Source: a virus. From it: a stretch of DNA of 38,923 nucleotides. The notes under the pieces were generated by a model. That model had not been told where the DNA came from. It was given only the letters and a program-made list of their open reading frames with translations, and searched no databases. Shown here one piece after another: positions 1,065 through 27,048 of the stretch (the stretch's first letter is position 1; each line of letters opens with the position of its first letter). A program made the position numbers and the translations under genes. The stretch lies in the UHGV virus genome UHGV-0153024; one strand, 5' to 3'.

Positions 1065-2096
1065 TCAAAAACTTGCTATTGATGTTGGTAGTGTTGCCAG
1101 CGGATTAAACCGTAGTGCAGTTTCCAGGTGATCCGGTGCCAGATGTGCGTAACGCATAGTCATTTTTATATCGTGATGCCCGAGAATTTTTTGTAAGGCC
1201 AGGATATTTCCACCCGACATCATGAAGTGCGCCGCAAACGTATGGCGCAGAACGTGTGTCAGTTGACCGCGAGGGAGCACGATAGACGTTTTTTCCATCA
1301 CGGATAAAAATTGAAAATAGCAGTCTGTAAAGAAATTGAACCCATCAAGCGCCATGATCTCTTCGTAAAGCTCTTTACTGATAGGGATGCTTCTGTTTTT
1401 CTTCCCCTTCGTTCTTACAAAGGTAATTCGGTATTTGGTCACCTGTGAGCGGGTAAGATTTACGGCTTCACGCCAACGTGCGCCTGTGCTTAAGCATATC
1501 TTAACTACCAGTGCCAGAATTGGGTCCTGACGTTTGCAATCAGCCAGCAATTCAACAATCTGCTCATGGGTAAGCCATGCCATCTCTTTTTCTGCAATGG
1601 TGAATTTTCGCATGTTCTCCAGTGGGTTCGGATACGACCATTCGCCCAGGCGGGATAGTTCGCTAAAAACACTACTTAGATAGCTTTGCTCCAGGTTAAT
1701 GGTGACCGGGCTTGCTCCTTTCTTCCATTTCTCGCTGAAGTAGATCTCACCTGTCAGGCGTTTATCTCGATAGTGGGCAAACATTTTAGATGTGAGATCA
1801 GTTGCAAGGGGATTGCCCAGAGCGTCAACCATCAGCAGCAATTTGTCATAGACATGCTGCCCAGCAGTCAGTGATTTACCATGTAGTTTGAACCATAGCT
1901 CAACCACGTCTTTCAGTGTTCGACGATCTACTGATTCACCCAGCCAGGGCTTTGCTTCGGTTTCTTCCATCGTGTGACGCTCAAAAGCCAGAGCTTCGCC
2001 TTTGGTGGCGAATTGTTTACGCACACGACGCCCACTTCGTCCGGCGGGGTAACATTCGCAAAGCCATTTCCCTGTGGTGAGTTTTCGTACTGCCAT
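1065..2096 (-). CDS. int: Tyrosine integrase (phage integrase family)
   Basis: 343-aa ORF; C-terminal catalytic region with R...HxxR...Y pattern (LTHVLRHTFAAHF, HHDIKMTMRYAHLAPDH); at the prophage end next to att, as in P2. Confidence 0.9.
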   Translation of the reverse strand: MAVRKLTTGKWLCECYPAGRSGRRVRKQFATKGEALAFERHTMEETEAKPWLGESVDRRTLKDVVELWFKLHGKSLTAGQHVYDKLLLMVDALGNPLATDLTSKMFAHYRDKRLTGEIYFSEKWKKGASPVTINLEQSYLSSVFSELSRLGEWSYPNPLENMRKFTIAEKEMAWLTHEQIVELLADCKRQDPILALVVKICLSTGARWREAVNLTRSQVTKYRITFVRTKGKKNRSIPISKELYEEIMALDGFNFFTDCYFQFLSVMEKTSIVLPRGQLTHVLRHTFAAHFMMSGGNILALQKILGHHDIKMTMRYAHLAPDHLETALRFNPLATLPTSIASF

Positions 2097-2101
2097 AAAA
2101 A

Positions 2102-2121
2102 AGCCCTCATGTCAGAGGGCT
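2102..2121 (-). terminator. GC-rich hairpin (AGCCCTC-loop-GAGGGCT) with short T-run, ending 5 nt before the int start codon
   Basis: 7-bp stem; on the minus strand it is followed by TTTTT and then the int ATG (2096-2094). A second hairpin (2152-2177, ATGTATGG/CCATACAT) and the palindrome TGACCAGTGGTCA (2139-2151) lie between it and the stop of the upstream membrane-protein gene. Confidence 0.45.
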
Positions 2122-2176
2122 AAATTAAACTGTATGTTTGACCAGTGGTCAATGTATGGTTTGTGAAATCCATACA

Positions 2177-2707
2177 TTACCTTAATTTATCAAGCTCTCG
2201 TTTATTTCTTTTATCATGTATATCATTAAGAAATAATATATTACTAGCAATGATACTAAATAACGCTATTATTTGTAGATATACTAATAACGCTGTGATA
2301 AAAAATCCAAACTTGCAGAACACGTGCTTATGCAAGGAAATGAAATCCAGATTTGAAAATATAGGTTTCGTTAAATTTATTATAACAATAGAAAATATTA
2401 CAATAGCTGAAATTATAATGGTTTTCACTATCAGCGTAATTCGCTCAATATCTTTTTCTGTTTCCTTATGATAGTTTATACTAGTTATTGTTGATGGCTT
2501 TACAATTGAACTTACAGCTGCAGGGTAAATATATGCAAGCCAAATACCTGCAATAGTGAAGATCATTGCAGAAATGTTTTGCAAGGTAGATAAAATATCT
2601 TTTATATCTGCATACGTATATTTGTCTCCGAACAAATAAGCAATAGCTATAATTGTTAGGAGAAAACATATGTGCAAAATTTTAGGTTTTATAATCATAC
2701 TATGCAC
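2177..2707 (-). CDS. Small integral membrane protein (176 aa, about four predicted TM helices); candidate RexB-like effector
   Basis: Four hydrophobic segments (ILHICFLLTIIAIAYLF; AMIFTIAGIWLAYIYPAAV; ITLIVKTIIISAIVIFSIVIINL; FGFFITALLVYLQIIALFSIIASNILFL); very AT-rich; start overlaps the upstream 400-aa gene by 8 nt. Confidence 0.6.
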   Translation of the reverse strand: MHSMIIKPKILHICFLLTIIAIAYLFGDKYTYADIKDILSTLQNISAMIFTIAGIWLAYIYPAAVSSIVKPSTITSINYHKETEKDIERITLIVKTIIISAIVIFSIVIINLTKPIFSNLDFISLHKHVFCKFGFFITALLVYLQIIALFSIIASNILFLNDIHDKRNKRELDKLR

Positions 2708-3902
2708 CTATTTTATGAATCTGCACTGCTGTATCATTATCAGCTTCTGGTTGTTCTATTATATCTTCATTTTTAAAACAATTCACCAAATCATTTCTAT
2801 GAGCTTTTACCACACTCATTAAATATGAAGAAGAGTAATGTTTGTTTCTGTTAGAAAGGTCAACGTGAATTTCATGGCGATAAACATATTCATCTAACCA
2901 AGTAGTTGAACCATTTTTCCCATTTATTTTGAATCCGATGCGTGCGTGATCATTCCCTACATTCTCATTGTTGTTTTCTGTATCTTCTGAAATAGGATTG
3001 TGGTTTTCTATATATTCATCGATGAGTTTAGTGAACTCTTCAGGCGTAGGCGTTCCTTCGACTAATAATTCAACGCGATGTTTTTTTGATAAAATAGGAG
3101 AGCTTCTTGAGAAAACATCTCCAACTGCATCAAATAACTTCTGCCATTTTTCCCGTGTATCAGGTATGTTTGTTTCTATTACGTCATGGTAAACAATGTG
3201 AGTGATTTTTTTACACAGTTCTTCTATGTTTGCTCCACTCGTGATCATCCTTGTTTGTTTAGTCTGTACTTTAAAAACTAAACTTTCATCATCACCTTGA
3301 GAAAAAAGAACACGTTTGTAATGAACGTCTTCAGGTGAGTCATTACGAGGACGAGTCATATCTATGACTTTTTTATTAGGATGCTCCATCCTAAAGTCAA
3401 CGTATGCTTTAATATAATGACAGAAAAGATCTGTATCCGTATTAGAACTTGGGAATCGTATGGATGCAATTTTGTTATATTCTGGAATTACCCAATAGTA
3501 GCAAGGTACGCCCCAGATATATTTACCGCCACCTTGAGTATCAGAGGCGGATACAACATTATCTGAAGTGCCGTCAATCTTACTTTCAGCATCTATACCT
3601 TGAATATTTCCAGAGTTATCACCAAGCGTTTTCCAGATAACAAATAGATAATCTCCTGTCGTACTGTCATATGAAATATTTTTACAGTATGCTTTTGTTC
3701 TTCTATTATTATCCTTTCCCCATGGAACAGATTGTTCAACTGTTCTTGAACAGATCCAGCTATGTAAGTTACACAGAACATGGGATAAGTTCTTTTCGAC
3801 TAATTCCGGCGATTTGCCTTGTCGTATTTTATAAAGGCCAAACATTTCTAAATCAAAAAATGTTATAATGCCGCGTTCAGTTTTAAAGTTGGTTTTACTC
3901 AT
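2700..3902 (-). CDS. Hypothetical protein (400 aa), first gene of the repressor-linked cargo operon
   Basis: Long AT-rich ORF directly downstream of, and co-oriented with, the CI-like repressor; purine-rich RBS (GAAGAGAAG) upstream of the ATG; no recognisable catalytic motif by eye. Confidence 0.65.
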   Translation of the reverse strand: MSKTNFKTERGIITFFDLEMFGLYKIRQGKSPELVEKNLSHVLCNLHSWICSRTVEQSVPWGKDNNRRTKAYCKNISYDSTTGDYLFVIWKTLGDNSGNIQGIDAESKIDGTSDNVVSASDTQGGGKYIWGVPCYYWVIPEYNKIASIRFPSSNTDTDLFCHYIKAYVDFRMEHPNKKVIDMTRPRNDSPEDVHYKRVLFSQGDDESLVFKVQTKQTRMITSGANIEELCKKITHIVYHDVIETNIPDTREKWQKLFDAVGDVFSRSSPILSKKHRVELLVEGTPTPEEFTKLIDEYIENHNPISEDTENNNENVGNDHARIGFKINGKNGSTTWLDEYVYRHEIHVDLSNRNKHYSSSYLMSVVKAHRNDLVNCFKNEDIIEQPEADNDTAVQIHKIGA

Positions 3903-3982
3903 TGTTATTGCTTCTCTTCACCTTTTAAATCTTTCGCTTAATATAATCACTTCTATTAGAATGACATTTGTTGAATGTCACT

Positions 3983-4864
3983 TTAATTCGAAATGATTGT
4001 GCTTCTTATGCATGCAACTACCTCGATATCAGAAAATGCACATTCAAAGTAAGTTTCTTTACTTCTGATATTTATCATACCTTTAGGTAGCCTAGTAATT
4101 TGTCTGACGGAATAGGTTCCATCAATATTAATTAACCAGTATCCATCTAATACATCAGAAAATTTCTGATCACAGATGTATGCCACTAAACCATCCTGAA
4201 CGACAATTGGTGCTGAAAGATTAGCGGGTAAAAATGACGAATCGAAAATATATGAGCCACTCTCAACCATTTTGCCTGCATTGAGATGAAATTTAGGCAG
4301 TTCTTTTACCGATGTTGTGAGAGCATTGTGCTCGCTGCCTTGTCCAGTGGCTAGCCATAAAAGAGAATTTCCTGTTTCCAACGAACATTTTATGATCCAA
4401 TCAGCCGGGAATGTGTCTCGCAAATATCTATTTGCCATAGTGCTTTTAGATACATTCAGATGGTCGGCAAGTTCTTGTCTTGTTTTAAAGCCATACGCTT
4501 TCATTAGCCTGTCTATTGCATCACGTCCGCCTGAGTCAAAATTCAGATCGTTCCCAATTGGGGACTTCAGGGTGGTGGCTTGGGAAACGTGCTGAACCTT
4601 TGATGCAGTTGCCTTTGACATGACCGGAGCCTCAGTACTCTGAGGGAATGGTACGCCTTTTCCGAATGAGAGCCACTCGATAGATGCACCCGTTTCAATT
4701 GCACACTGAATTACCCAGTCAGCAGGAAATACGTCACGCATCCAGCGCGTGCCCATAGTGCTTGCAGATACGTTGAACTGTTCGCACAGAGCTTGCCTTG
4801 TCTTGAATCCATACGCTTCAAGCATGCGCGTTATGACTGCTTGTCCTCCGTTTTTGAAATTCAT
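3983..4864 (-). CDS. CI-like immunity repressor with tandem-duplicated N-terminal DNA-binding domain
   Basis: 293 aa; two similar ~60-aa segments (MLEAYGFKTRQALCEQFNVSASTMGTRWMRDVFPADWVIQCAIETGASIEWL and LMKAYGFKTRQELADHLNVSKSTMANRYLRDTFPADWIIKCSLETGNSLLWL) resembling the phage 186 CI-type HTH; divergent from the Apl/Cox-like gene. Confidence 0.75.
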   Translation of the reverse strand: MNFKNGGQAVITRMLEAYGFKTRQALCEQFNVSASTMGTRWMRDVFPADWVIQCAIETGASIEWLSFGKGVPFPQSTEAPVMSKATASKVQHVSQATTLKSPIGNDLNFDSGGRDAIDRLMKAYGFKTRQELADHLNVSKSTMANRYLRDTFPADWIIKCSLETGNSLLWLATGQGSEHNALTTSVKELPKFHLNAGKMVESGSYIFDSSFLPANLSAPIVVQDGLVAYICDQKFSDVLDGYWLINIDGTYSVRQITRLPKGMINIRSKETYFECAFSDIEVVACIRSTIISN

Positions 4865-10761: not shown

Positions 10762-10950
10762 ATGCAGGACTATTTTTTGGAGTCTTTGAAGCTCCAGCGC
10801 ATTGATTTTTTTCTTAAGCTTGTAGCGGCTAGTGAGTGTAGTGATGAAGAGAAGGGGCTGGCTCTGCAGTGGGTTTCTGAACTAACAGATGAACTCATGG
10901 CAAAAATCAGAACCCACGAATACAACCGCTCAATGGATGTCATCAGCTGA
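10762..10950 (+). CDS. Small SOS-regulated protein (62 aa), candidate Tum-like antirepressor
   Basis: Strong RBS (AGGAGG) 6 nt before the ATG; immediately downstream of the LexA box; context resembles the 186 tum operon. Confidence 0.5.
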   Translation: MQDYFLESLKLQRIDFFLKLVAASECSDEEKGLALQWVSELTDELMAKIRTHEYNRSMDVIS

Positions 10951-10960
10951 GGTGACTTTT

Positions 10961-11194
10961 ATGCGCATTGAAATAATGATCGATAAAGAGCAGAAGATTA
11001 GCCAGTCTACCCTGGACGCCCTTGAATCCGAGCTTTACCGCAATCTGTGCCCCCTGTATCCCAAAACGGTAATTCGCATTCGCAAAGGTAGCTCTAACGG
11101 TGTGGAACTAACCGGACTGCAACTGGACGAAGAAAGGAAGCAAGTGATGAAAATTATGCAGAAGGTGTGGGAAGACGACAGCTGGCTGCATTAA
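10961..11194 (+). CDS. DinI-family protein
   Basis: 77 aa, MRIEIMIDKEQ...ELYRNLCPLYP...KIMQKVWEDDSWL, resembling DinI (MRIEVTIAK...ETWESADDWF) from memory; RBS GAGGTGA. Confidence 0.7.
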   Translation: MRIEIMIDKEQKISQSTLDALESELYRNLCPLYPKTVIRIRKGSSNGVELTGLQLDEERKQVMKIMQKVWEDDSWLH

Positions 11195-11481
11195 GAAACG
11201 TTGCCCCCAAGAGGATTCATTCTGATGGGGGACTATTTTGGGCAACGAGTGAAACGAGGCGTTAGGTGGACGGCCATTTTGATAAGTGATCGTCCGCTTT
11301 TTGTTCTGAGTTCAAGCGATGGATTTAACACACTGGTTGAAGCAGAAGTATCTAAGTTCAATTTATATTATTTGAAGGGCACTGGTCTGATGTAGTACGA
11401 TTTTTGCCGGAGATGGCATGTTCTATATTGATCTCATCCATATAATGATTGGTATTATTAGCTTAGTTTAAAGAGGATTGA

Positions 11482-13059
11482 ATGGATATCAACTATGTTG
11501 TTTCAAAAATGGGGTTCGTAGATGATCTTATTAATGCAGGTTCATTTGATTCTGCCTATAAAAATGTAAAGGATATTCTTAACGGTATCGATGAGATAAA
11601 TACAATCAAAGAAAATAGAATAATTATATTATCTAATTTGGCCGGAAATCTTATTGATATCGGAAATTTTAGTAATGTAAAAAATATAGCGGAGGAAGGC
11701 TTAAATATCTTTATAAACAATAAAAATGAATTTCTGACTATAATGAAAGAATCTTTATATTACTATAACTTGGCAAATGGAATGAGCGCAGTTCTTGATT
11801 TTAATCCTAATGACAATGCAGATATTGATAGTTTCATTAAGCTGAATGATGTAAAAAATAATTACTGGAAAGCGTTTAAACTTTCACAAGAAGATGGATG
11901 GGTGCCCCCTGATTTAATAGTTAATCTAGCTAATGTATTAAAAAAACAATATCGTATATCTGAATCAATGGATTATTATGAACAAGCAATATCTATTGAT
12001 AACTCAATTCCTCAGGCGTGGGTAAACAGATCTGAGGCATTAGAATTGCTTAATGAATTATCTACAACATATACATATAAAATGATTAAAGAAGTTATTC
12101 GAGGTTATGAGTGTGCAATAAAGTCAGGGAAATGTTTTCCTTCATGGAAGATTGCTCTTCAAAGAAAAATAAAGTACAACGAAAGTATATTGAGTGAATC
12201 ATGTGTATATGGCATAGAGGATATAAGTACAGATGAAAGGCTCACGCAGGAGGAGTATGATACTTTATCAAACTACCAGAGGTTTTGTATAGATAATAAT
12301 CTAATGTTGTCTGATCATTCGCTATATTGCAATTGTTATGCGTCATCTAAAGATAATATAACTATTGCGACCACCGAGGAAGGTGTGTTTGGTGATTTTA
12401 TAGTGCCAATGGAAATGGTGTTAAATAGACTTAAAGCTGAGTATTCCTTAGCACGAAAAATGTTTTTTGAATATAAGGTTGATAGTGAGTTTTTTGATGA
12501 GGATTCGGAGGTATGTTATTCTGAATTGTATAATGGAGAAATATTGTATGAAAATGTTGAGAAGTTAAGGGTTGCATTTAGAGCTTGCTTTGGTATCTTG
12601 GATAAAATAGCAGTTGCTCTGTGTCAATTATTTGATTTAAAACCAGATAGAGGACATATATACTTTCATAACTTCTGGCGGATTAGTGATGAAAAAAGAA
12701 AGCTTAAAATAAACAAAATAAATAATAAAGGATTGCTGGGTTTGTTTAGTATTGCTATGGATTTGAATGATAAAAATGGTGAGCTTGCTTTTTTTAAAGA
12801 ATGGAGGAATGATTTAGAACATAAACTGTTAGTTATTCACGAGAAAGACATGTTAGTTGATTTATATAATTCTTATGGATTTTTTGATGAGATGAGGTTT
12901 ATTGAGAAAGAAAAGTTTGAGAAACAGCTCTTACAACTCATGAAAATTGTGAGATCAGCCGTTATTCTTTTTGTGTTTACCATACGTATAGAGGGGAAAA
13001 AAAGTATTCCTAAAGATATGTTGACCATTAAAAATACCATCGAGAGAAAAGTATTGTAG
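11482..13059 (+). CDS. Orphan 525-aa protein with N-terminal TPR-like repeats and C-terminal HEPN-like Rx4H motif; candidate anti-phage defence gene
   Basis: AT-rich island in the A-cos hotspot; TATAAT at 11441-11446; RBS AGAGGA 5 nt before the ATG; helical-repeat N-terminus (YYEQAISIDNSIPQAWVNRSEALELL); motif W-R-N-D-L-E-H at codons 441-447 (nt 12802-12822); own terminator. Confidence 0.8.
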   Translation: MDINYVVSKMGFVDDLINAGSFDSAYKNVKDILNGIDEINTIKENRIIILSNLAGNLIDIGNFSNVKNIAEEGLNIFINNKNEFLTIMKESLYYYNLANGMSAVLDFNPNDNADIDSFIKLNDVKNNYWKAFKLSQEDGWVPPDLIVNLANVLKKQYRISESMDYYEQAISIDNSIPQAWVNRSEALELLNELSTTYTYKMIKEVIRGYECAIKSGKCFPSWKIALQRKIKYNESILSESCVYGIEDISTDERLTQEEYDTLSNYQRFCIDNNLMLSDHSLYCNCYASSKDNITIATTEEGVFGDFIVPMEMVLNRLKAEYSLARKMFFEYKVDSEFFDEDSEVCYSELYNGEILYENVEKLRVAFRACFGILDKIAVALCQLFDLKPDRGHIYFHNFWRISDEKRKLKINKINNKGLLGLFSIAMDLNDKNGELAFFKEWRNDLEHKLLVIHEKDMLVDLYNSYGFFDEMRFIEKEKFEKQLLQLMKIVRSAVILFVFTIRIEGKKSIPKDMLTIKNTIERKVL

Positions 13060-25876: not shown

Positions 25877-25965
25877 GAGTAGTAAACCCCTGTCCCGACG
25901 CCATGATACTATCGACTCATGACTCCTGAGTGTGTACCATTAACACAAAAAAATTGAGGTACATA

Positions 25966-27048
25966 ATGAAAAAAGTATTGATAGTTAGCTTGGTGGGCAT
26001 CGGAGATCACTTATTATCACGAGTATTCATGAAATCACTCCGCGATGATGAAAAATATAAGCACGCTAAATTCACCTTGCTTGGCAACACTGCATTCAAA
26101 GATTTTTCTCTCAAGTTTGATATGAATATATTTAATCATTTCATTTGGGTTGATTGTAATAAGGTTACTCCTTATGTGCAAACCAAAGAGAGCACATATA
26201 CTAAGATTAAAAATAAAGCCATCAGGTTTTACATCAGAAATTTAATTAAGCACTCAAATTTCGATGAGATTATAGTTCCAGATTGGTGGGGTGCGTCAAC
26301 TACTTTGCGTGTTACTCCATTTATCTCTAGTGTGAGGGATAGAGCCATCATCAATGGTATGAATATACCTGACCATCAAAGGGAGTTTTTTGGCTATTCC
26401 ACAAAGCCGGATATTGATTTTTCAAAGCATGTCCTGGATATGAATAAAGAGTTTTTCTCTGAGATTATACCATTTCCTAAATTCGAAGTTGAAATTCCAC
26501 TAAAAAATAAAAATAAAGACAGTGGCAAGATTGATATTTGCATTTCACTGGGAGCCTCTGCGCCTTTTAAAAAATACCCTGTATTACAATTAGCAAATGT
26601 AATAAACAGCATATCATCTTCATACAATGCCAATTTTAAAATCATTGGCTCCAATGATGAAATTTCAGATTACAATGTTCTTATTGAGCATATCGATAAC
26701 AAGGATATTGTAGCAGGTTTTGTTGGAAGGACTACATTATCTGAGTCGTGCGATATTGTTCTTTCATCTGAACTTTTGATTGCAAACGACACAGGCATGT
26801 TCCATGTTGGTGCTCTGGCAGGGATTAAAACTGTTTGTATTTCGAATGGTACTGGTTTGCATGCATTTGTGCCATACCCTGAGGAATTTTCGAACTGTAT
26901 TACGGTTTTCCCACCAGAGATACAAAACAAGGTAGGCACAAAAGATTTTATAAATGCACATGGCTGGTCTGGCTCAGCAATTCCGATGTCGAATATATCA
27001 CCAGACGATGTTCTTGCGGCTTGTTATAAATTGCTAAATAAAAAATAG
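25966..27048 (+). CDS. Glycosyltransferase family 9 (heptosyltransferase-like)
   Basis: GT9-type motifs: N-terminal KVLIVSLVGIGDHLL (cf. WaaC ILIVKTSSMGDVLH), central GASAPFKKYP, C-terminal ELLIANDTGMFHVGALAGIKTV (cf. VSVDTGLSHLTAALDRP); AT-rich; RBS GAGGT 5 nt before the ATG. Confidence 0.7.
   Translation: MKKVLIVSLVGIGDHLLSRVFMKSLRDDEKYKHAKFTLLGNTAFKDFSLKFDMNIFNHFIWVDCNKVTPYVQTKESTYTKIKNKAIRFYIRNLIKHSNFDEIIVPDWWGASTTLRVTPFISSVRDRAIINGMNIPDHQREFFGYSTKPDIDFSKHVLDMNKEFFSEIIPFPKFEVEIPLKNKNKDSGKIDICISLGASAPFKKYPVLQLANVINSISSSYNANFKIIGSNDEISDYNVLIEHIDNKDIVAGFVGRTTLSESCDIVLSSELLIANDTGMFHVGALAGIKTVCISNGTGLHAFVPYPEEFSNCITVFPPEIQNKVGTKDFINAHGWSGSAIPMSNISPDDVLAACYKLLNKK

Follow-up and report, generated by a model that had tools for sequence, protein, structure and literature searches.

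What is the two-gene cassette that sits between the immunity repressor gene and the integrase gene of the prophage in UHGV virus genome UHGV-0153024, and what would it do there? The stretch analysed here (38,923 nucleotides, nt; hereafter the window, in whose positions all coordinates are given unless another locus is named) is a 186-like (Peduoviridae) prophage integrated beside rcdA in Escherichia coli, and the two genes of the cassette are referred to below as A and B. On balance, and with modest confidence, we think it probable that they constitute a two-component module, Rex-type but divergent, which the lysogenic operon carries as exchangeable cargo and in which a sensor and a membrane effector would abort infection. 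The evidence behind this reading comprises the order and coupling of the genes, the similarity between the predicted fold of A and that of RexA, the four transmembrane (TM) segments of B, the strict co-occurrence of A and B among widely divergent copies, their linkage to repressors, their occupancy of a slot that elsewhere holds validated defence systems, and their membership in the candidate family PDC-M18. The features of the locus are as follows:

1065-2096, minus strand: int, tyrosine integrase of 343 amino acids (aa), with Pfam Int_N and Phage_integrase and so annotated in RefSeq; downstream edge of the slot.
2102-2121, minus strand: G+C-rich hairpin and T-run abutting the int ATG, terminator-like by site and fold; a backbone element, int-leader or terminator.
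2151-2178, minus strand: hairpin by fold, with a 9-bp stem and a 10-nt loop, overlapping the stop codon of B; junction of cargo and backbone.
2177-2698, minus strand: gene B, four-TM protein of 173 aa (176 aa if begun at GTG 2707), PDC-M18B family; proposed membrane effector.
2700-3902, minus strand: gene A, soluble protein of 400 aa, PDC-M18A family, with a predicted RexA/RdgC-like fold; proposed cytoplasmic sensor.
3903-3982, minus strand: cI-A intergenic spacer of 80 nt, with an AU-rich hairpin without T-run and a weak promoter-like match.
3983-4864, minus strand: cI, CI-type immunity repressor of 293 aa (Pfam Phage_CI_repr twice, Phage_CI_C); first gene of the lysogenic operon.

An initial annotation of the window had described a soluble protein of 400 aa and a four-TM protein downstream of a CI-like repressor on the same strand, a description with which open reading frames (ORFs), Pfam, hydropathy and AlphaFold2 (AF2) models all agree. 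The repressor matches Phage_CI_repr twice (4.6e-59) and Phage_CI_C (1.2e-25), corresponding to a duplicated N-terminal helix-turn-helix (HTH) and a C-terminal domain, and RefSeq names it 'phage repressor protein CI' at the identical locus. By hydropathy, A has no TM-like segment and B has four, at about residues 1-26, 42-63, 83-117 and 125-161. The island is, as had also been claimed, strongly AT-rich: from about 2100 to 4200 its G+C content (GC) stays at 0.28-0.38, while the flanking sequence has about 0.44-0.54.

Family membership and the resemblance to RexAB

The pair is already catalogued as a candidate system and is not of a new kind. In PADLOC, A matches PDC-M18A (best model PDLC04494, E 2.1e-36, over profile positions 7-336 of 339; five more PDC-M18A models match) and B, whose gene adjoins that of A and shares its strand, matches PDC-M18B (PDLC04500, E 5.1e-24). 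The initial annotation, which had proposed this search, recognised no motifs in either protein; that holds for Pfam and NCBIfam, which yielded nothing meaningful, but the PADLOC family was missed. PHROGs without an assigned function are matched by both proteins as well. Systems with the PDC prefix are untested candidates for phage defence that were discovered as genes lying inside BREX, DISARM or type I restriction-modification (RM) loci; the Domainator paper equates PDC-M18 with system #4 from the hotspot of P4 satellites (Rousset et al. 2022). In Table S2B of the latter study this system is pFR81, 'RexA + 4TM', from E. coli IAI75. Both proteins are homologous to those of pFR81 from end to end, with 28% identity for A (E 3e-49) and 37% for B (E 7e-34), and the two pairs share the two-gene order and the tight junction; pFR81, however, resides in the hotspot near cos in a P4 satellite, whereas the pair in the window occupies the interval between cI and int in a 186-like prophage. 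The analogy with Rex drawn in the initial annotation is thereby backed by the label given to a homologous pair.

The A family is large, with 498 clusters at 50% identity (E <= 1e-3, in a search of 1.84 billion representatives) and members of 340-415 aa, and PDC-M18 is spread over Enterobacterales, Vibrio, Pseudomonas, Chromohalobacter and beyond. The branch represented in the window shows 62-70% identity only to prophage copies in Enterobacter, Pectobacterium and Pantoea. Among 102 family members of A the conserved residues are solely G, W, Y, P, T and F, which argues against an enzyme.

The connection with RexA emerges from structure. The AF2 model of A has a predicted local distance difference test score (pLDDT) of 71 and a predicted template modelling score of 0.66, with 85-94 pLDDT in the N-terminal half, and in structural comparison the next scores after RexA belong to Iml3 (6.5), RdgC (6.2), Chl4 (5.9) and CENP-N (5.2-5.6). 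The order of elements in the model, an N-terminal sheet, an inserted domain of sheet plus helices, a return and a long C-terminal helix, agrees with the published topology of RexA. As modelled, A appears to have the RexA fold, i.e. an RdgC-like split beta-sheet domain interrupted by a dimerisation domain. RdgC itself not only scores below RexA but is a housekeeping single gene, with neither membrane partner nor prophage context.

In lambda, as in the window, a four-TM partner is encoded directly after the sensor, downstream of the immunity repressor. Yet A (400 aa) is about 120 residues longer than lambda RexA (279 aa), and the repressor is S24-type in lambda and 186-type (Phage_CI_repr/CI_C) in the window. 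Experiments with lambda have established that RexA dimerises and binds DNA non-specifically, and have tied RexA and RexB to energetic collapse and to the exclusion of T4 rII. Rex-type relatives include RexABpp of Pseudomonas putida prophage P1 (PP_5643/PP_5644) and the pairs of actinophages Sbash (gp30/31) and CarolAnn (gp44/43), and experiments on RexABpp and the actinophage Rex-like pairs support a role in defence, DNA binding and membrane damage that depends on RexB; one recent paper counts only five Rex-like systems described. RexApp matches RexA at 98% in HHpred, whereas the A family is not significant in hhalign, and given that strong match RexApp is probably nearer to RexA than the A family is. 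By cluster names, no P. putida member of the A family was found.

In its AF2 model (pLDDT 81), protein B consists of four long helices bundled together, the second of which is extremely conserved and partly polar (motif STLQNISxMIFTIxGIWLAYIYP). With RexB it has in common only four TM segments by the same hydropathy method, small size and position. In a search of BFVD with the B model, a 165-aa protein of Mycobacterium phage Sbash appeared at rank 23 (E 1.7) and was not counted. A small, polytopic protein with so conserved a polar helix would also suit envelope superinfection exclusion (Sie), in which B blocks DNA entry or a membrane step and A is a cofactor, without abortive arrest; the lysogenic operon is, moreover, a typical site of Sie-type genes, and the cI-int slot is a defence hotspot. 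Known Sie proteins, however, are usually single small membrane proteins, and a strictly co-conserved partner of 340-415 aa with a predicted RexA fold points instead to intracellular sensing. We therefore hold an exclusion function of this type to be improbable.

Several results weigh against the Rex-type reading. At E <= 1, A matches neither the Pfam (PF15969) nor the PADLOC model of RexA, and the 'RexA'-labelled protein of pFR81 is likewise matched by neither; in the control, lambda RexA and RexB reached 9e-110 and 8.6e-61 against their own PADLOC models. Profiles of the A family, built from 18 and then from 100-146 sequences (effective number of sequences up to about 6), were compared in hhalign with lambda RexA, with a RexA family alignment of 25 sequences and with pFR86, and neither the shallow nor the deep profiles ever gave a significant match; against the RexA family the probability was at most 1.8% (P about 0.03-0.3; E 0.03-0.3). 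The best alignments were always co-linear (A 235-383 with RexA 150-277, or near full length at low mact), which is a hint and not evidence. As a control, pFR86, 'RexAB-like' in Rousset et al. (2022), aligned to the RexA family with a probability of 68% (E 5e-5), so the A family is more remote from RexA than pFR86 is. Judged by its sequence, A does not appear to belong to the RexA family. B has no PADLOC RexB match, its hhalign probability with RexB is 0.09%, and the hidden Markov model (HMM) of its family misses RexB; four-helix membrane proteins are, furthermore, generic. The likeness to lambda cI-rexA-rexB put forward in the initial annotation thus survives for architecture and predicted fold, but not for membership in the RexA and RexB sequence families.

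The structural side has its own weaknesses. The model of A, for which 18 sequences served as input, is of moderate confidence: its central and C-terminal portions have pLDDT of 40-80. Structure prediction and Foldseek searches, both suggested at the outset, gave A a predicted RexA-like fold on the one hand, but on the other no match for the A model in PDB and no significant structural match for the B model in BFVD. Among PDB sequences the profile HMM of the A family retrieved only spurious L28 or EF-hand matches. The pattern of transcription, too, is ambiguous, with an 80-nt gap before A and a strong hairpin with T-run after B. Lastly, pFR81 is listed only in Table S2B, 'additional tested systems', and not in Table S2A, which holds the validated ones, and hence was not validated against lambda, T4, P1, 186cIts, T7, CLB_P2, LF82_P8 and AL505_P2 (tested in MG1655, from a low-copy plasmid). 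The authors note that their small panel probably underestimates activity (Rousset et al. 2022), and the classic Rex phenotype involves T4 rII mutants; for both reasons this negative is weak evidence.

Genomic contexts of the pair and the cI-int slot

Immediately after A comes a homolog of B in each of eight distant genomic contexts (E 1e-8 to 1e-99), in all 17 IMG/VR loci that extend past the end of A (the eighteenth, L043, ends inside A) and in three cultured phages. The succession 186-type CI, A, B and int recurs in E. coli, Enterobacter hormaechei, Pectobacterium and IMG/VR contigs, and a 186-type CI also precedes A and B in the P2-like Vibrio phage 10N.222.45.E8_PE002 (L048 1821-6002). In another phage group the pair follows a repressor of the lambda-CI type (HTH_3 and Peptidase_S24), and in Pseudomonas phage Ps59 it lies on the repressor strand, two genes further on. 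Repressor-free contexts are a P4-like satellite hotspot, a Providencia phage (between the antiterminator Q and the lysis genes) and a cluster of tail genes, just upstream of the one for the tape measure. The tail position is seen in L040 (5992-7675) and L041, just upstream of a 976-aa tape-measure-like gene, and in L037-L039 and L042 a pair with identical B and near-identical A stands directly behind an S24-type CI; two positions of a near-identical pair within one phage group imply a recent relocation of the cassette. A-B is an autonomous mobile two-gene module that has repeatedly been placed behind immunity repressors of two unrelated families. In the Vibrio phage, B is immediately followed by Septu (PtuA/PtuB), encoded on the other strand, so that the repressor-proximal end carries a small cluster of defence genes.

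Recurrence right behind repressors of two unrelated families is also what favours a different explanation, namely that the main role of the pair lies in the lysis-lysogeny switch or the maintenance of the prophage itself, with A binding DNA, CI or Apl, and B either modulating the effect of A or shielding phage proteins from proteolysis as RexB does. Such a role is documented for lambda RexA, which interacts with CI and Cro and, without needing RexB, stabilises the lytic state. The distribution in E. coli fits as well: the cassette is present at >=99.6% identity in 12 of 5,426 complete genomes, each with the same cI allele, and cassette and allele are confined to the same 12. The cassette of the window was found in five IMG/VR contigs too, and megablast gave no match to it among cultured phage genomes. 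The homolog pFR81, without a defence phenotype, is a further point in favour. The pair also occurs, however, without an adjacent repressor (in P4-like hotspots, the tail cluster, the Providencia phage and BREX/DISARM/RM loci), which weakens the explanation, as a module dedicated to one switch should be less portable; besides, closely related CI alleles carry other cargo. A function mainly in the switch is, in our view, unlikely.

Mobility, tight coupling and AT-richness would equally describe an addiction or toxin-antitoxin-like moron, with a toxic B restrained by A or the reverse, or else a pair concerned with host physiology and unrelated to phages. A precedent for reversed roles is the Rex-like gp30/gp31 of mycobacteriophage Butters, in which the membrane protein sequesters a toxic soluble protein, and the absence of a phenotype for pFR81 in the phage panel would agree with it. 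Yet the company of the pair is consistently of the defence type (P4- and P2-like hotspots, BREX/RM loci, Septu in the Vibrio phage), and it has neither an enzymatic nor a classic toxin domain. The chance that it acts in either of these ways seems slim.

The slot occupied by the pair in the window supports its character as cargo. Phage 186 has cI directly next to int, both in one lysogenic operon transcribed from pL and pE, and in P2 the C-int gap of 115 nt holds no gene, just as the initial annotation had stated. We compared the slot of the window (2097-3982) with that of L002 (6082-7533), L003 (6087-7604), L004 (6088-7065) and L013 (6095-7771) and, further, of L015 (1851-2900), L024 (2691-4438) and L025 (2422-4127). 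The occupants of the interval in these siblings, 186-like prophages and phages, are a PD-Lambda-1 homolog (3e-120; DUF4041 and T5orf172 domains), HEC-01 (an ABC ATPase and its partner; 2e-209), KAP NTPases matching the candidate PDC-S20, and at least three unknown cassettes. PD-Lambda-1 originates from an experimental selection for defence systems and HEC-01 from a guilt-by-embedding study. Since the slot is empty in 186 and P2 and other cassettes fill it in siblings, the pair is exchangeable cargo, which bears out the earlier proposal that it was acquired. The only loci that the texts on P2 hotspots by Rousset et al. (2022) and Vassallo (2022) discuss are A-Q (tin/old) and Z/fun; our comparison suggests that 186-like phages have a third slot for cargo, the cI-int interval, in which validated defence systems occur.

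Gene junctions, int leader and the rest of the prophage

A single base separates the stop codon of A from ATG 2698 (TAGtATG). Because AGGTG precedes this ATG, RefSeq uses it at the identical locus (giving a B of 173 aa) and the Enterobacter homolog displays an equivalent junction (TAGcATG), B most likely starts there, and not at GTG 2707, which creates an overlap of 8 nt. Translational coupling, for which that overlap had been invoked in the initial annotation, is thus likely to be tight, but the overlap itself is probably not real. Upstream of A, the arms of the spacer hairpin (3982-3974 / 3968-3960) form a fold no more stable than shuffles (z -0.44), and a weak promoter-like match lies at 3967-3940; promoter-like hits were rejected as evidence, the scanned region having fewer of them than shuffles. 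The gap between CI and A, 80 nt in the window, measures 23 nt in Enterobacter hormaechei and 47 nt in Pectobacterium, and these shorter gaps argue for read-through from cI into A.

Downstream of B, the fold of the 101-nt hairpin region has -29.4 kcal/mol (z = -4.3 relative to shuffled sequence), and the region includes one hairpin at 2178-2151 with a 9-bp stem and another at 2121-2102 with a 7-bp stem of which 5 pairs are G-C, followed by a T-run. The tandem hairpins reported in the initial annotation therefore exist, but they do not close the island. From about 2165 to the int ATG, the hairpin at 2102-2121 included, the sequence is conserved in sibling prophages with wholly different cargo; this hairpin is conserved in five E. 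coli-type prophages regardless of what they carry, and Enterobacter and Pectobacterium have a hairpin at the equivalent position with the int Shine-Dalgarno in its 3' arm. In the window, too, the 3' arm (GAGGGCT) includes the likely int Shine-Dalgarno. The hairpin at 2151-2178 retains its position, with variable arms, in prophages carrying other cargo. Such conservation across cargoes assigns the hairpins to the int-leader backbone and not to the cargo end, and the hairpin at 2102-2121, kept whatever the cargo, was ruled out as the end of the island. The int leader could terminate or attenuate transcripts of the lysogenic operon, or mask translation of int. Within it (2097-2165), the perfect palindrome TTGACCAcTGGTCAA (2152-2138) lies upstream of the G+C hairpin, and TTGACC-N18-TAAATT is readable as a possible int promoter.

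On its right, cI is followed by genes for an apl/cox-like protein, cII, fil, a Dam methylase and a replication endonuclease. The repressors of this group vary in size: the cI gene of 186 spans only 579 nt, against a CI of 293 aa with two tandem HTH domains in the window, CIs of the cassette-bearing Enterobacter and Pectobacterium relatives have 187-199 aa, and other E. coli prophages encode CIs of 292-312 aa or possess two tandem cI genes (E2348/69). At the other end, rcdA and int have between them a minus-strand ORF of 89 aa (737-1006), located where 186 has Orf69 downstream of int; it is annotated in strain JNE151685, but RefSeq does not annotate it in strain 64, where int has 350 aa, as against 343 aa. 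These differences between strains in the ORF and in the length of int suggest mosaicism at the attachment-site end.

Two further AT-rich islands are present in the window. One (10889-13059, GC 0.32-0.36), after the replication endonuclease gene, corresponds to the classic P2 tin/old hotspot and encodes a DinI-like protein (10889-11194) and a 525-aa protein with tetratricopeptide repeats (TPR) plus HEPN_LA2681 (11482-13059), the latter without a strong PADLOC match. The other (25930-27048, GC 0.36) encodes a 372-aa protein with a weak match to glycosyltransferase family 9 (heptosyltransferase; E 3e-7), which, going by this similarity, could be a lipopolysaccharide-modifying moron.

Proposed action and significance

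Taking the pair as a divergent Rex-type module, its expression in the lysogen, the dimerisation and DNA binding of A, signalling from A to B, the effect on the membrane and the defence phenotype may all be conceived by analogy with lambda RexAB and P. putida RexABpp. A and B would be made constitutively in the lysogen through read-through from the cI promoter. A would be a non-enzymatic cytoplasmic protein, probably a dimer, binding DNA or a phage nucleoprotein complex, and B a small inner-membrane protein with four TM segments whose translation is tightly coupled to that of A. Upon infection by another phage, a cue sensed by A would lead it to activate B, which would compromise the energetics or integrity of the membrane, so that the infected cell would stop growing and the infection be aborted.

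The pair in itself is an expected type of prophage cargo and no surprise. PDC-M18 is now linked to RexA, by predicted fold, and to immunity repressors, by repeated synteny with both the 186-type and the S24-type. One may go further and suppose that PDC-M18, with some 500 clusters at 50% identity, is a large unrecognised branch of a Rex superfamily, in which A, with a dual function like that of lambda RexA, triggers B upon superinfection and also feeds back on the CI/Apl-type switch of the resident phage, a possibility to which we attach a low though not negligible probability. If true, the dual role of A would explain the repeated wiring of the pair behind repressors in unrelated temperate phages, and Rex-type systems would be a common and ancient accessory of lysogenic operons, far more than the few cases described to date. 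Should the cassette prove functional, the Rex paradigm would reach far outside the lambdoid phages and actinophages, and the cassette would offer, in E. coli and phage 186, a genetically tractable setting for learning what RexA-fold sensors detect.

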